Sequence record: NC_007021.1
Reading direction: 5' to 3' (one strand)
Source: Staphylococcus phage Twort
DNA: 64,000 nt
In this document: positions 16,272-46,673 of the stretch, one piece after another
How positions within the stretch are numbered: position 1 is the stretch's first letter
How the letters are laid out: every line of letters begins with the position of its first letter
The notes under the pieces: model-generated
Seen by the model: the letters and a program-made list of their open reading frames with translations, nothing else
The model's database searches: none
Told to the model about the DNA's origin: nothing
Program-made: the position numbers and the translations under genes

Positions 16272-17563
16272 ATGGCATCTCAAGCTAAACAGACAGTCCA
16301 TACTGGTAATACCGTAATGCTTATGATTAAAGGTAAACCTGTAGGTAGAGCTCAATCAGCGTCTGGTACACGTTCTTACGGTACAGAAGGGGTATATGAG
16401 ATTGGTTCTATCATGCCACAAGAACACGTTTACCTTAAGTATGAAGGTGAATTAACAGTAGAACGTCTACGAATGAAAAAAGAGAACTTTGCAAAATTAG
16501 GATATGCTTCTCTTGGTGAAGAAATCCTTAAGAAAGATATTATTGACATTGTTGTTATTGACAACTTGACTAAAGAAGTGCTTGTGTCATATCACGGTTG
16601 TAGTGCTAATAACTATGAACTTCGTAGCTTCACATAGTAATATGTGTCGAAAAACTTTTCTAAACAGGGAAGCCTAAGTCTATTAGATATGGTAATCCTG
16701 TGCTAAATCAGATTAATAATCTGTAAATGCCAAACGACTAACTGAAACCTACTTGATAATTCAAGGGGAGTAAGTGTAGAGCCAAGCGGTAGAAGTTTTA
16801 AGTAATTATTATGTAAATCTTCTTTAAATCGAAAAGAAAAGAGTCCTTTTTTAGGATTGTGATATAGTCTGAACATATATGGAAACATATAGCAGTTCCT
16901 AGAGAACGGGCAGTGAGTAGCGACCACTGTTGAACATAATGGATGAAGCATGGAACACTAATGAAATAACTACTGAAAGCATAAATAATTGTGCCTTTAT
17001 ACAGTAATGTATATCGAAAAATCCTCTAATTCAGGGAACACCTAAACAAACTAAGATGTAGGCAATCCTGAGCTAAGCTCTTAGTAATAAGAGAAAGTGC
17101 AACGACTATTCCGATAGGAAGTAGGGTCAAGTGACTCGAAATGGGGATTACCCTTCTAGGGTAGTGATATAGTCTGAACATATATGGAAACATATAGAAG
17201 GATAGGAGTAACGAACCTATTCGTAACATAATTGAACTTTTAGTTATTTATCAGCATAAAATTATCTTGTGCCTTTACACAGTAATGTGTATTGAAAACT
17301 CCTTTAATTCATGGGAAATCTTAATTAAGACAATCATGAGCCAAGCCTAGCAATAGGAAGGTGCAACGACTAGAGAAAGGGTAGCTTACTATTATAGGTA
17401 GTAAGTGAGAACCGAGTATCGTACGCTCAAGTGAGTGGAAATGGGGAGTGTCCTAGAGTAACGACTAGGATAATGATATAGTCTGAACATATATGGAAAC
17501 ATATAGAAGGATAGGAGTAACGAACCTATTCGTAACATAATTGCAGATAAAGCTTCACGATAG
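16272..17563 (+). CDS. tail tube protein gene split by three group I introns; ~139 aa when spliced
   Basis: Inferred exons: 16272-16607, 16942-16982 (41 nt), 17235-17257 (23 nt), 17544-17563. Exon 1 ORF (112 aa) follows the sheath gene. Splice sites are inferred from alignment of the intron copies, the U-before-5'SS and G-before-3'SS rules, and frame continuity (84 nt = 28 codons to TAG at 17561-17563). Confidence 0.55.
16608..16941 (+). mobile_element. Group I intron 1 of the tail-tube gene (ORF-less)
   Basis: P/Q/R/S-like core elements; 3' end ..GUUGAACAUAAUG. Confidence 0.55.
16983..17234 (+). mobile_element. Group I intron 2 of the tail-tube gene (ORF-less)
   Basis: Starts aaataattgtgcc..; R ..gcaacgacta..; 3' 75 nt identical to intron 3, ending ..cgtaacataattg. 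Confidence 0.55.
17258..17543 (+). mobile_element. Group I intron 3 of the tail-tube gene (ORF-less)
   Basis: Starts aaaattatcttgtgcc..; same conserved 3' core; ends ..cgtaacataattg. Confidence 0.55.
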
Positions 17564-42241: not shown

Positions 42242-43570
42242 ATGGCATTAATAAATTTTAAAGAAATAACAGAATCTGACACACTCAAAGCACTAACGGA
42301 GGCTGTTAATAACATAGGTACAGAGTTATCTGAGGACGGTAATATTTTTGCTAAGGTTGAAAAGTTAGAAACACAATCTGCAAGTACCCCTAAGTATTAC
42401 CTAGTTCAAGATAGTGGTAAAGCTAAACAAGTATCAAGTAGAAGCTCATTAAGTAGTATTACACAAACAGGATTCTATTATGTATCATCTAACGTATCTT
42501 TCTATATATCAGAATTACCACAAGAGCTTAGAACAGATTTACTGTTAAGTGTATATCAAACAGAAGTAGGGGTAGTTCAGTTTATTAACACTATATCAAC
42601 TGTCGAGTCGAAAAAATACTTTGCCTACCGTGTGAATTATAATGGTATGGCTGGCTCTTGGAGATTTATAGACTCAAGAATTAATAATAGAAGTACACTG
42701 GTTGTTGGTGGTTCCTATAAAGATATTATTACACCAGGTAATTACATTGTAAATAGTTTAAAAGATTTACCAGATAGTAATTCCGACGGGTATTTATCTG
42801 TAATAACGAATCAATCTGATGAACGTTCTTATATTTACATTAGTCCAGATAATAAAATGTATCATTCAGTATCTAATCAATCTAAAGACTATGAGTGGGT
42901 TAAAGAGTTTGAGACAAAAGATATTGAAAAATATTTACTTACTAATTTAGATGGTTCTTTTAATTTACTTATTTATAGTAACGAGGGTAAATCTTTTGAA
43001 ACTAAAGTATTAGAATACTTAAACTCATTAGATAAACCACGAACTTTTACATTTTATATACAAGGTGGGGTTTCTGGAAACCCATCATCTGGTAGTTGTA
43101 GAGGTCTTTTTGTAATAGATTCTATAAACTATGGTAACTACTATATGATTGATAACTATGGTAATTTATTTACAGGTTCCTTAAACAACGGAGCGTTACT
43201 TAAAGCAAAACCTTCTACGTCCTCTGATGTATTATGGACAGGTGCAAAAAACTTCACTGATAAAGGCACTGTTGAGACTCTTAAGTTCCCTATTGCTGAT
43301 TATGAATATGTAAAAATATTTGTTACAGTACCATCACAAGGACCAAATACAAGTGACATTACAAACGATTTACAAAACGGCGCTCACGAGTTTTACATTA
43401 AAGGACAATCACGAGCATCAGTGTCAGGTCTAGTTGTATCTTCAGATACTAAATTTGATTTATATCGTGTAGGTATTGCCTTTGGACAAAAGTCATGGCG
43501 TATTACAGATATGGCAAAAACAAATACTAAGAATGCTTATATTACACGTATTGTAGGTATAAACTATTAA
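42242..43570 (+). CDS. tail fibre / receptor-binding protein candidate
   Basis: 442-aa ORF, last gene of the structural block. Confidence 0.4.
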   Translation: MALINFKEITESDTLKALTEAVNNIGTELSEDGNIFAKVEKLETQSASTPKYYLVQDSGKAKQVSSRSSLSSITQTGFYYVSSNVSFYISELPQELRTDLLLSVYQTEVGVVQFINTISTVESKKYFAYRVNYNGMAGSWRFIDSRINNRSTLVVGGSYKDIITPGNYIVNSLKDLPDSNSDGYLSVITNQSDERSYIYISPDNKMYHSVSNQSKDYEWVKEFETKDIEKYLLTNLDGSFNLLIYSNEGKSFETKVLEYLNSLDKPRTFTFYIQGGVSGNPSSGSCRGLFVIDSINYGNYYMIDNYGNLFTGSLNNGALLKAKPSTSSDVLWTGAKNFTDKGTVETLKFPIADYEYVKIFVTVPSQGPNTSDITNDLQNGAHEFYIKGQSRASVSGLVVSSDTKFDLYRVGIAFGQKSWRITDMAKTNTKNAYITRIVGINY

Positions 43571-43627
43571 AACTAGGATTAATTTCCTAGTTTTTTTATT
43601 GACTTAATACTAAAAGTATGATAAAAT
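43571..43627 (+). promoter_or_regulatory. Terminator (ctagga..tcctag followed by TTTTTTT) directly followed by promoter TTGACT-17-TGaTAAAAT
   Basis: hairpin 43573-43590; T-run 43591-43597; ttgact 43599-43604; taaaat 43622-43627. Confidence 0.55.
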
Positions 43628-43658
43628 AACCCTTGTGTATAGGGGGAAGGGAGCTTTT

Positions 43659-46600
43659 ATGAAGTTACGTATAAAAAACCTTTTCACTTATGTTGAATTT
43701 GAGGAGGATGATAAGTATTTAAAGGACATATTTTTAAAACGTGTACATAAAACAATTGGCGCAAGACAACAAGGATTTCAGTTTAGTCCTGCATATAAGA
43801 GAGGTAGTTGGGATGGATACATTGATTTCTATGTTTACGAGGAGGATAAATTCCCCACAGGGCTCCTACATAGAGTAGAGTTATTACTAGGAGAATTACA
43901 ATCAAGATATAACTTCCAATATTCTAAGATTGATGAACGTTCTGAAAGTTTCTTAGCTCCTGAAGATATTGACAAAGAAATTAAATTACTTGATAATAAG
44001 ATAGGTCAGATTACTTTAAGAGAATATCAATATCAAGCTGTGTACGAAAGTTTGGTTAATTTTAATGGCGTATTAAAGATTGCGACTAATGGTGGTAAAT
44101 GTATTTCTATGGATTCTATGATTTTAACTACAGAAGGGTACAAGTCTCTTCAAGAGATTTTTGAAACTCAAGGAGTTAAAGTAGATAATAAAGAAAAAGT
44201 CATAGAATTAAAATATCCATTAATAAATCGTTATGGTGACGTTGAGTACACTAGTCACTTTACTAAGAATGGAGAAAAGCCTACAAAGAGAATAAAAACT
44301 AATAAAGGTATTGAGTTAGTTAATACTTATAATCACCCATTATTAGTTAGAGAAGGTTTTAATCTTATATGGAAAAAAAGTGAAGATATTGAAGTAGGAG
44401 ATATTTTAGTATCTAGAGTAGGAGACCATCAATTTGGTAACAACAATACTGTAGAAAATGAAGAGGAAGCCTATGCATTAGGTTGTATGGTAGCTGACAG
44501 TTATTTAGGTTCTTACAGTCGTTTATCGTTTTCTAACGATAAAAAAGAGATACTAGATAAAGTTTCTAAATTTTGGAATACTTTCAGTAATAAAGAAGTT
44601 TATTATGATACGTATAAAGAATCTAAAGGTATAACTATACACTTACATGACACAAATAAAACTAAAGAATTTCATGATAAATATAAAATTGAATACGGAG
44701 TAGCAAAAGATAAGAAAATACCTAAGTGTATTATGGAATCTCCTGAAAATATTCAATTAGCATTTGTAAGTGGTTACTTAGAATGTGAGTCTAGTATATC
44801 AGAAAAGAACTTAGAAGTTACGAGTGCTTCTAAAGATTTACTAAAAGACTTACAACTTATTCTTTCTAATATAGGGATTGTATCAACTAATAAAGAAAAA
44901 GTAGTTAAAAAATACAAACACAATAAGTATTATAGACTTATAGTTAATAGAAAAGAATTGATTAAATTATTACCTTTATTAAGATTTGAAACACAACAAA
45001 GAAAAAATCAAAAAGAGAACTTCTTATCTAATAATACAAAAATTAAAAGTTCTTATGGAAACACTATAGAAGGGTCACGTTATTTATTAAAAAAATATAG
45101 AGATTCTTTAAATATAGACAAAAAAGAATTTAGTAAGTATCTTTCAAGAGATACTATTACTATTGATAGACTTAGAGAAGTAATTTCCTTATACCCTGAC
45201 GGGGATAAGGAAATTAGAGAACTTTTTGAAAATGTAGTAAATAATAATATTTACTACCAGAAAGTAGAACAAGTATTAGAAGGGGAGATTATACCTACAT
45301 TTGATGTATGTATGCCAAAAACACATAGTTTTATTGCCAACACTATTGTTAATCATAATACAGAATGTGCCAGTGGAATTATAGACCAATTACTACCACA
45401 ACTTGAAAAAGGGGAAACAATAGCTTTTTTCACAGGTTCTACAGAAATCTTTCATCAATCAGCAGATAGATTAAAAGAACGCTTAAATATTCCTATTGGT
45501 AAAATAGGTGCAGGTAAGTTTGATGTTAAACAGGTAAACGTTGTAATGATACCTACATTGAACTCAAATATGAAAGACCCTACAGAAGGATTAAAAGTTA
45601 CACCTAAGCAAAATATTAGTAAAAAGATAGCTAAGGAAGTATTGCCTAAATTTGAAGGTGGCAAGAATCAAAAAAGGTTTATGGGTATGTACTTAAAACA
45701 GTTTGAACCTAAAACTAAAGTAGACCAAAAGGTTAAAGATGAGTTAATTAATATTTACAATACTTCTAAGTCAGACCAAGAGTTACTACTTAACCTTAGA
45801 AAACATAATGTTATCTTCCAAAATATTGCGAAGAGTAAGAATGAAAAGAAATATAATAAGTATCACCAAATGCGTGAATTCTTAGACTCAGTTGCTGTAA
45901 TGATAGTAGATGAGGCGCACCATAGTAAATCTGATTCATGGTATAATAACCTAATGACTTGTGATAATGCACTGTACAGAATAGCTTTGACAGGTTCTAT
46001 TGATACACAAGATGATTTATTGAATATGAGATTAGAAGCATTATTCGGTGAAGTTATTTCTAGAGTATCAAATGAGTTTTTAATAAGTGAAGGGCACTCT
46101 GCTAAGCCTACTATTAATACAATACCTATAATGACACCTAAAGATATAGAAAACCAAAAAGAATATAGGGACGTTTATGATGAAGGGATAACAAATAATG
46201 AATTTAGAAATAAACTTATTGCAAAACTAACAGAAAAGTGGTATAATAAGGACAAAGGTGTTTTAATCATTGTTAACTTTATTACCCATGGGGAAAATAT
46301 ATCTAAATTACTAGAAGAGTTAGGCATAGAACATTTCTTCTTACACGGTGAAGTAGATTCAGAACTACGACAACAAAAATTAAATGATATGAGAAGTGGA
46401 AAGTTAAAAGTTATGATTGCTACAAGTCTCATTGATGAGGGAGTAGACATTAGTGGTATTCATGCACTTATCTTAGGTGCAGGAGGTAAGTCACTAAGAC
46501 AAGTTCTACAGCGTATTGGTAGAGCTTTACGTAAGAAGAAGGATGATAATACAACACAGATATTTGATTTTGAGGATAGAACACATAAATTTTTATATGA

Positions 46601-46673
46601 GCATTTTAAGCAAAGATTATCTATTTATGAAGAAGAAAAGTTTGAAGTAAAAGATGTTACAAGAAAGGGATAG
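43659..46673 (+). CDS. SF2 DNA helicase (DEAH box) containing a 420-aa intein; ATG 43659 preferred as start
   Basis: P-loop ..ATNGGK|..|TEC.. is split by the insert. DEAH motif at ..MIVDEAHHSKS.. . RBS GGGGGAAGGGAG precedes ATG 43659. Confidence 0.8.
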   Translation: MKLRIKNLFTYVEFEEDDKYLKDIFLKRVHKTIGARQQGFQFSPAYKRGSWDGYIDFYVYEEDKFPTGLLHRVELLLGELQSRYNFQYSKIDERSESFLAPEDIDKEIKLLDNKIGQITLREYQYQAVYESLVNFNGVLKIATNGGKCISMDSMILTTEGYKSLQEIFETQGVKVDNKEKVIELKYPLINRYGDVEYTSHFTKNGEKPTKRIKTNKGIELVNTYNHPLLVREGFNLIWKKSEDIEVGDILVSRVGDHQFGNNNTVENEEEAYALGCMVADSYLGSYSRLSFSNDKKEILDKVSKFWNTFSNKEVYYDTYKESKGITIHLHDTNKTKEFHDKYKIEYGVAKDKKIPKCIMESPENIQLAFVSGYLECESSISEKNLEVTSASKDLLKDLQLILSNIGIVSTNKEKVVKKYKHNKYYRLIVNRKELIKLLPLLRFETQQRKNQKENFLSNNTKIKSSYGNTIEGSRYLLKKYRDSLNIDKKEFSKYLSRDTITIDRLREVISLYPDGDKEIRELFENVVNNNIYYQKVEQVLEGEIIPTFDVCMPKTHSFIANTIVNHNTECASGIIDQLLPQLEKGETIAFFTGSTEIFHQSADRLKERLNIPIGKIGAGKFDVKQVNVVMIPTLNSNMKDPTEGLKVTPKQNISKKIAKEVLPKFEGGKNQKRFMGMYLKQFEPKTKVDQKVKDELINIYNTSKSDQELLLNLRKHNVIFQNIAKSKNEKKYNKYHQMREFLDSVAVMIVDEAHHSKSDSWYNNLMTCDNALYRIALTGSIDTQDDLLNMRLEALFGEVISRVSNEFLISEGHSAKPTINTIPIMTPKDIENQKEYRDVYDEGITNNEFRNKLIAKLTEKWYNKDKGVLIIVNFITHGENISKLLEELGIEHFFLHGEVDSELRQQKLNDMRSGKLKVMIATSLIDEGVDISGIHALILGAGGKSLRQVLQRIGRALRKKKDDNTTQIFDFEDRTHKFLYEHFKQRLSIYEEEKFEVKDVTRKG
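44100..45359 (+). mobile_element. Intein with LAGLIDADG homing-endonuclease domain inserted in the helicase Walker-A motif
   Basis: Starts with Cys (CISMDSMILT, block A) and ends ..IVNHN followed by Thr (+1). TxxH block B in ..TYNHPLLV.. . Two LAGLIDADG-like motifs (..LGCMVADSY.., ..FVSGYLECES..). Excision restores GGK-T. Confidence 0.8.

Follow-up and report, generated by a model that had tools for sequence, protein, structure and literature searches.

A predicted class-1 intein with a nested LAGLIDADG endonuclease in the P-loop of the UvsW-like helicase of Staphylococcus phage Twort

The subject of this analysis is a 64,000-nucleotide stretch of the genome of Staphylococcus phage Twort (NC_007021.1; hereafter the window), in which a helicase gene on the plus strand carries an in-frame insert at positions 44100-45359. 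This insert is almost certainly a class-1 intein of the canonical kind that houses a double-motif LAGLIDADG homing endonuclease and is lodged in the P-loop of a UvsW-like helicase. We document its anatomy, the profile families to which it belongs, an exact empty site in a related phage and the evolutionary footprint of horizontal intein transfer; the splicing steps are deduced from established intein chemistry, and homing, too, is a deduction. No sequence feature that would argue against an intein was found.

Results

Boundaries, splicing residues and endonuclease motifs

The insert consists of 420 in-frame codons without a stop, of which the first is TGT (CISMDSMILT) and the last three are AAT CAT AAT (IVNHN), and the codon that follows specifies Thr. 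The original prediction, made from the sequence alone, had placed a 420-amino-acid insert with these ends at these positions, and in translation it proves exact to the base. Deleting the insert joins ...KIATNGGK to TECASGIIDQ, and the predicted insertion splits the P-loop between its invariant Lys and Thr (ATNGGK/T; the six residues before the break, the first of helicase motif I, are encoded at 44082-44099). The Thr that follows (Thr+1, ACA at 45360-45362) has a double role, as Thr of the Walker A motif and as nucleophile for splicing. That removal of the insert restores a Walker A motif, ATNGGK-T, had also been claimed, and is borne out both by alignment with motif I of UvsW and by the uninterrupted motif of the related phage vB_SpsM-DH2 (see below).

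Catalytic residues were aligned across nine homologous inteins that are 39-94% identical to the Twort intein, and invariance is stated below with reference to this set. All class-1 splicing residues are present (C1, T76, H79, D402, H409, H419, N420 and T+1). Invariant columns comprise C1, T10 and G13 in block A, G70, T76, N78, H79, P80 and L82 in block B, T400, F401, D402 and H409 in block F, and H419 and N420 in block G. Block B aligns with 'GTANHPLL' of the Mxe GyrA intein, and blocks F and G align with the C-terminal halves of the Mxe GyrA and DnaB mini-inteins. Thr+1 occurs in every allele inserted at the Lys/Thr site, and Ser+1 in the shifted allele of phage vB_SurM-PSU6 that is described below. 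In the list of open reading frames, no other frame of at least 60 amino acids overlaps the insert on either strand.

The TxxH block and the two LAGLIDADG-like motifs foreseen for the insert were all located (T76-Y-N-H79 and motifs 1 and 2 in Table 1). The two motifs are spaced about 97 amino acids apart. Motif 1 aligns with 'FLGYLIADGTL' of the TliVMA intein; A132 and G137 are invariant, and every homologue has Asp or Glu at position 133. In motif 2, E228 and E230 are invariant. In the alignment, D133 and E230 occupy the positions of the two catalytic Asp residues of TliVMA, E230 standing opposite the Asp of 'IVCDGY'; TliVMA (7QSS) is an active endonuclease, whereas PhoVMA is degenerate (PMC8966425). 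These features identify a putative double-motif LAGLIDADG homing endonuclease nested in the intein.

Matches to intein and endonuclease families

When the insert alone was compared with Pfam, it matched PF14890 Intein_splicing with 58.3 bits (cut-off 35.8; E=1.1e-15) over residues 8-420, and PF14528 LAGLIDADG_3 with 67.4 bits (cut-off 22.5; E=1.3e-18) over intein residues 219-291, beginning at motif 2. The check for Hint and LAGLIDADG domains that the original prediction had proposed thus came out positive on both counts. In NCBIfam, TIGR01445 intein_Nterm matched precursor residues 148-230 with 29.1 bits (cut-off 24.5); along its full length, the insert is moreover collinear with the part of NF038098 GyrA_w_intein that represents the intein (positions 117-541), and likewise with the intein segments of the RFC and DnaB models. 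With three models above their curated cut-offs and with invariant splicing residues, the identification as an intein with a LAGLIDADG endonuclease holds. A chance resemblance is discounted because of the Pfam E-values together with the existence of a natural intein-less allele that has the same junction.

A single-sequence search of the Protein Data Bank with the insert matched the TliVMA intein of T. litoralis (7QSS/7QSU), the Mxe GyrA intein and PI-PkoII. A profile built from the nine inteins matched PI-PfuI (1DQ3) at positions 64-315, the C-terminal halves of the DnaB, RadA, CDC21 and TFIIB mini-inteins, and Mxe GyrA in two pieces that correspond to its N- and C-terminal Hint halves. The best solved-structure matches of the Twort intein are shared out between TliVMA (7QSS) and PI-PfuI (1DQ3), which its endonuclease core resembles, and Mxe GyrA (1AM2), which both its Hint halves resemble. 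All of these are only remotely similar (E about 1e-9 to 1e-15) and come from archaeal or mycobacterial hosts with other exteins, and the Mxe GyrA intein, unlike that of Twort, has no endonuclease domain. As a separate candidate, a BIL (bacterial intein-like) or non-splicing Hint domain was considered and ruled out by the Thr at +1, the HN C-terminus and the site in the most conserved helicase motif.

An empty site in phage vB_SpsM-DH2

In the phage collection, where no record is identical to the window, the nearest genome is that of Staphylococcus pseudintermedius phage vB_SpsM-DH2 (DH2), with about 84% nucleotide identity over 24 kb. Its helicase lacks the insert, is 584 amino acids long and is 97.4% identical to the Twort exteins. 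The DH2 junction reads ATNGGKTECASG (also given as KIATNGGKTECASG and VLKIATNGGKTECASGIIDQ), which is the predicted spliced junction of Twort; at the DNA level, the empty site reads GTATTAAAGATTGCGACTAATGGTGGTAAA up to the junction and ACAGAATGCGCCAGTGGAATTATAGACCAA beyond it, and the flanks of Twort and DH2 are identical at 30/30 nucleotides upstream and at 29/30 downstream. This allele is the strongest single confirmation that the predicted ends of the element, 44100 and 45359, are its true ones. With exteins that are 97% identical, Twort (occupied) and DH2 (empty) constitute a natural pair for measuring homing in staphylococcal phages.

Position +3 of the C-extein is Cys in Twort and DH2 (TEC, 45366-45368 in Twort) and Ile, Val or Met in all other alleles. 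Because the intein-less DH2 has it as well, Cys+3 is a trait of the extein. Redox-sensitive disulfides are described for other inteins (PMC6195587), and it is pure speculation that Cys+3, being near Cys1 in the precursor, could in principle permit one here.

The host helicase and its start

The one long plus-strand open reading frame over the locus in the mechanical list spans 43635 (GTG)-46673 and encodes 1012 amino acids, the length that the original prediction gave for the precursor. That figure is to be corrected to 1004 amino acids, since the true start is almost certainly not the upstream GTG but ATG 43659: a Shine-Dalgarno sequence (GGAG, 43650-43653) lies 5 nucleotides ahead of it, the helicase coding sequence of phage Quidividi begins at the homologous ATG, and the 1004-amino-acid product is identical to a database protein (AAX92302.1 / YP_238583.1 / QIW89127.1, 'DNA helicase [Staphylococcus phage Twort]'). 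Of the products of the two candidate starts, only this one occurs verbatim in the protein collection. The precursor has a calculated mass of 116.5 kDa, the spliced helicase one of 67.6 kDa and the intein one of 48.9 kDa, the last replacing an earlier estimate of ~47 kDa.

The conceptually spliced helicase of 584 amino acids matches T4 UvsW (2OCA) with E=1.9e-30, and the HMMER alignment sets the spliced ATNGGKT opposite PTSAGRS of UvsW motif I (helicase motif I / Walker A). Motif II, DEAH, lies within 45900-45926 in the C-extein. Helicase_C (PF00271) is matched in the spliced protein with 61.4 bits; the match to UvsW_N is weak (22.8 vs a cut-off of 25.3). Motif I, a motif II of the DExH type, a C-terminal RecA-like domain and the similarity to UvsW together identify the host protein as a UvsW-like superfamily 2 (SF2) DNA helicase.

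Related alleles and the footprint of mobility

Helicase loci from eleven further phages of the Herelleviridae were gathered, and exteins and inteins were compared separately. At the amino-acid level, exteins and inteins are, respectively, 74.3% and 93.8% identical between Twort and Quidividi, 99.7% and 63.9% between Quidividi and Terranova, 79.5% and 99.8% between S25-3 and Terranova, 79.2% and 99.5% between 184DA and MSShimriz1, and 65.3% and 80.0% between EFP01 (Enterococcus) and LMTA-148 (Listeria). A homologue of the C-extein is present in 748 phage records (Staphylococcus 339, Bacillus 244, Enterococcus 69, Listeria 54), and any intein match in at most 134 of these (Staphylococcus 47, Bacillus 42, Enterococcus 20, Listeria 8); the distribution is therefore sporadic. 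Discordant identities and sporadic distribution fit homing and together point to its being ongoing.

Between Twort and Quidividi, nucleotide identity is 69-76% ahead of 44100 and rises abruptly to 97-98% at precisely that position. On the 3' side it decays gradually, from 80-86% over 45360-45500 to about 72%, which is only suggestive of a co-conversion tract 3' of the Twort intein; the stretch 45360-45500 is also conserved with respect to DH2, which weakens the case for such a tract. Synonymous divergence (dS) is 0.176 in the intein vs 1.88 (saturated) in the N-extein. For the ratio of nonsynonymous to synonymous divergence (dN/dS), the Hint and endonuclease parts give 0.08-0.12 (0.12 in the endonuclease domain) and the N-extein gives 0.10; purifying selection has therefore acted on the Hint and endonuclease parts ever since the transfer. 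The intein of Quidividi / vB_SepM_phiIPLA-C1C (GenBank MH321490) shares with that of Twort the GGK/T site and the length of 420 amino acids, at about 96% nucleotide identity, such that the two are effectively one allele; they differ in that the host of the former belongs to the genus Sepunavirus and that its C-extein opens with TEI instead of TEC.

The inteins of S25-3 (Kayvirus, Japan; L003 1915-3168) and Terranova (Sepunavirus, USA; L005 2501-3754) differ at 1/1254 nucleotides. Their flanks share 70-80% identity, except for the 60 nucleotides directly downstream, which reach 95%. This looks like a very recent transfer across genera with a short 3' co-conversion tract, for which the case is clearer here than in Twort. 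The inteins of S25-3/Terranova, 184DA/MSShimriz1, JDF86, EFP01, LMTA-148 and Bacillus phage BSP10 share the Lys/Thr site, a length of 418-432 amino acids, the Twort architecture and all catalytic residues, but are only 39-68% identical to the Twort intein at the amino-acid level.

Three further observations concern these relatives. Quidividi (L001 3443-4702) and Terranova (L005 2501-3754) have near-identical exteins and divergent inteins at one site, and a resident intein allele appears to have been replaced; differences in their flanks are concentrated 213-584 nucleotides upstream of the junction, and isolated ones occur at -34 and +3, a pattern that would fit a recombination tract better than the classic route of homing into an empty site. 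In vB_SurM-PSU6 (L008 2501-3766), whose exteins share 97.2% identity with those of S25-3 (where the insertion is at Lys/Thr), a related intein of about 45% identity sits three codons upstream (ATN/C...QHN/SGKTE), and the Ser+1 nucleophile replaces the first Gly of GGK. A homologue search with the intein returned six matches, mostly fragments, among which the metagenome sequences P0013 and P0014 show the same shifted ATN/C site. Finally, the helicase of Bacillus phage BSP10 (1391 amino acids) has, beside its P-loop intein, a second one of 369 amino acids (L011 4370-5476) inside motif II (MIADE/C...THN/CHHSK), such that DEAH becomes DE-[intein]-CH with Cys at +1.

Table 1. Predicted features of the helicase locus in the Twort window
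Feature	Coordinates	Strand	Remarks
Promoter-like site TTGACT-17-TAAAAT with TG extension	43599..43627	+	consensus match only
Gene for the intein-containing UvsW-like SF2 DNA helicase precursor	43659..46673	+	1004 amino acids plus stop, 116.5 kDa
N-extein, UvsW_N-like domain	43659..44099	+	147 amino acids, 17.4 kDa; ends with ATNGGK
Class-1 intein with nested LAGLIDADG endonuclease	44100..45359	+	420 amino acids, 48.9 kDa
Splicing block A, CISMDSMILTTEGYKSL	44100..44150	+	Cys1 (44100-44102), N-terminal nucleophile
Splicing block B, GIELVNTYNHPLLV	44307..44348	+	T76-Y-N-H79 (TxxH) at 44325-44336
LAGLIDADG motif 1 (block C), EEAYALGCMVADSYLGS	44463..44513	+	intein residues 122-138; putative catalytic Asp133
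LAGLIDADG motif 2 (block E), QLAFVSGYLECESS	44754..44795	+	intein residues 219-232; putative catalytic Glu230
Helical accessory/linker region	45000..45212	+	about intein residues 301-371, approximate boundaries; between endonuclease core and C-terminal Hint half
Splicing blocks F and G, PTFDVCMPKTHSFIA and NTIVNHN	45294..45359	+	D402, H409, penultimate H419, terminal N420
C-extein, Helicase_C domain	45360..46670	+	437 amino acids, 50.2 kDa; first residue Thr+1

Discussion

Following established intein chemistry, the precursor would be translated as one chain of 116.5 kDa, in which Cys1 would undergo an N-S acyl shift. Thr+1 would then attack the thioester to give a branched intermediate, and cyclisation of Asn420, aided by His419, would free the 48.9-kDa intein. 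An O-N shift would subsequently establish a native peptide bond, yielding the 67.6-kDa helicase with an intact ATNGGKT P-loop. Upon co-infection, the freed intein could make a site-specific cut in intein-less helicase alleles at the joined extein sequence, and repair from the intein-containing copy would duplicate the element, that is, accomplish its homing.

How much of this cycle still operates in Twort can be questioned, and the rival that deserves most attention, albeit an unlikely one, accepts splicing but holds that the endonuclease is dead and that the intein is a fixed passenger, which spreads vertically or by ordinary recombination. The homing-cycle model indeed predicts decay of the endonuclease after fixation (PMC8966425), the final Gly of motif 1 is replaced by Ser, and intein residues 301-385 are relaxed (dN/dS 0.35). 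Yet both catalytic acids are conserved, the endonuclease domain has kept a dN/dS of 0.12 since the split between Twort and Quidividi, and identity differs strongly between inteins and exteins and changes abruptly at the insertion point. A sister allele is, moreover, near-identical across genera, and the distribution is sporadic instead of fixed, the closest relative, DH2, being still empty.

Two further explanations would deny protein splicing altogether. If the insert were a degenerate, non-splicing Hint-like insertion, the helicase would either be inactive or work with a domain of 420 amino acids in its P-loop; the literature, in which no splicing experiment on the Twort protein was found, leaves room for this, but we regard it as very improbable. 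The residues for all four splicing steps are present and invariant in distant homologues, and strong purifying selection acts on the exteins in lineages that bear the intein (dN/dS 0.10 in the N-extein). Because the exteins are maintained in this way, and because a 49-kDa insert between the Walker A Lys and Thr would break the ATP site, a functional helicase must presumably be regenerated. That the element is instead an intron, or a free-standing homing-endonuclease gene that is in frame by chance, and thus does not act at the protein level, might be entertained given that Twort is rich in group I introns (three at 16606-17506), but this is the least credible reading of all: Rfam finds no intron at 44100-45359, the frame is continuous without stop or restart, and the ends of the insert are Hint blocks A and G, not RNA structure.

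Against our preferred reading, that of a canonical class-1 intein with a nested homing endonuclease, the following points have to be weighed. Motif 1 ends in ...ADS instead of ...ADG. The Twort-type allele diverges by about 4% at the nucleotide level from its nearest copy, and the Twort endonuclease could have lost its activity since the transfer. The AlphaFold2 models reach a mean pLDDT (predicted local distance difference test) of only 37.7 from the single sequence and of 46.3 from a 7-row alignment of fragmentary metagenome matches; because these models are of low confidence, the assignment of the Hint and LAGLIDADG folds rests on sequence profiles. Lastly, in the literature we found no paper that reports a splicing or endonuclease experiment on the Twort protein.

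The Twort helicase intein is already known, as the original prediction had suspected, and Kwan et al. 2005 is apparently the primary report. P-loop inteins with LAGLIDADG endonucleases are, furthermore, a textbook case, and as a discovery the present finding is of small weight. A Hint domain has been reported for the Twort helicase gene (PMC5526547), intein domains in Twort are mentioned elsewhere (PMC5618024), and the exact protein is in the databases. The GenBank record of Quidividi sets identical boundaries in its mat_peptide features ('begins with CISMD... ends before TEIAS'), and S25-3, PSU6 and several Bacillus phages are annotated as 'helicase with intein'. The Lys/Thr position in the P-loop is described as a 'classic' intein insertion (Kelley et al., PMC5050341), and the identical position is documented for DnaB, MCM and RFC (Novikova et al., PMC4760082). 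With mycobacteriophage TerL1-a, DnaB-b, MCM-a and RFC-a, the Twort intein thus shares the Walker A position, a conserved essential site, and the Thr at +1 that is both nucleophile and Mg-ATP ligand (PMC5050341, PMC4760082). The hosts of those inteins are unrelated, however, being terminase, SF4 (superfamily 4) or AAA+ ATPases in contrast to the SF2 UvsW-like helicase of Twort, and the comparison of sequences with them covers generic Hint similarity. Only the quantified exchange of intein alleles across genera at the Lys/Thr site and the occupied/empty pair of Twort and DH2 are modestly new.

It is conceivable, with about an even chance of being right, that the Lys/Thr P-loop of Herelleviridae is a contested homing site. 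Divergent alleles, at least five in number and with 39-68% identity to the Twort intein, would then be exchanged at present across phage and host genera, with one replacement and one shifted variant (PSU6), and the Twort copy would be an active participant that recently moved between the Twort and Sepunavirus lineages. More speculative still is the idea that conditional splicing might time the activation of the helicase, perhaps via pairing of Cys1 with Cys+3 of TEC.

For annotation, these results mean that the 1004-amino-acid 'DNA helicase' should carry mat_peptide features, and that relatives are mis-named 'gyrA' because of the intein. In MT596504-MT596506 (vB_SepM_BE07/08/09), the intein-containing helicase is labelled 'gyrA: DNA gyrase subunit A', which is most likely an annotation artefact; the Twort intein scores 119.7 bits against NF038098 GyrA_w_intein, far under the cut-off of 1850 for that model. 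Inteins also confound trees built from the core genes of Herelleviridae (PMC7409376).

Additional features of the locus and the window

For intein residues ~301-371, which separate the endonuclease core from the C-terminal half of the Hint domain, we found no Pfam or PDB assignment; they are helical in the low-confidence structure model and collinear with full-length GyrA-type inteins (NF038098 positions 117-541). Residues 301-385 are the least constrained part of the intein in the comparison of Twort with Quidividi. Variable 'accessory domains' are known to adjoin intein endonucleases (PMC8966425), and by analogy such a domain is most likely the category to which this region belongs. The G+C fraction, which is 0.29-0.34 in the exteins and also in the N-terminal part of the Hint domain, falls to 0.22-0.25 over 44650-45250 (endonuclease and accessory part), as would suit a segment that is foreign or under different constraints.

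A terminator-like hairpin (43569-43594) stands just ahead of the promoter-like site upstream of the helicase gene, and the annotation of Quidividi places a terminator at the homologous position.

Elsewhere in the window, three tandem group I introns lie within about 900 nucleotides at 16606-17506 on the plus strand (RF00028; 63.6, 97.4 and 100.9 bits), and they are the only Rfam matches at gathering level in the window. The original prediction had counted the intein as a third class of selfish element in the window; this claim is partly borne out, in that group I introns accompany the intein. We take the gene at 16606-17506 to be the classic three-intron gene of phage Twort.

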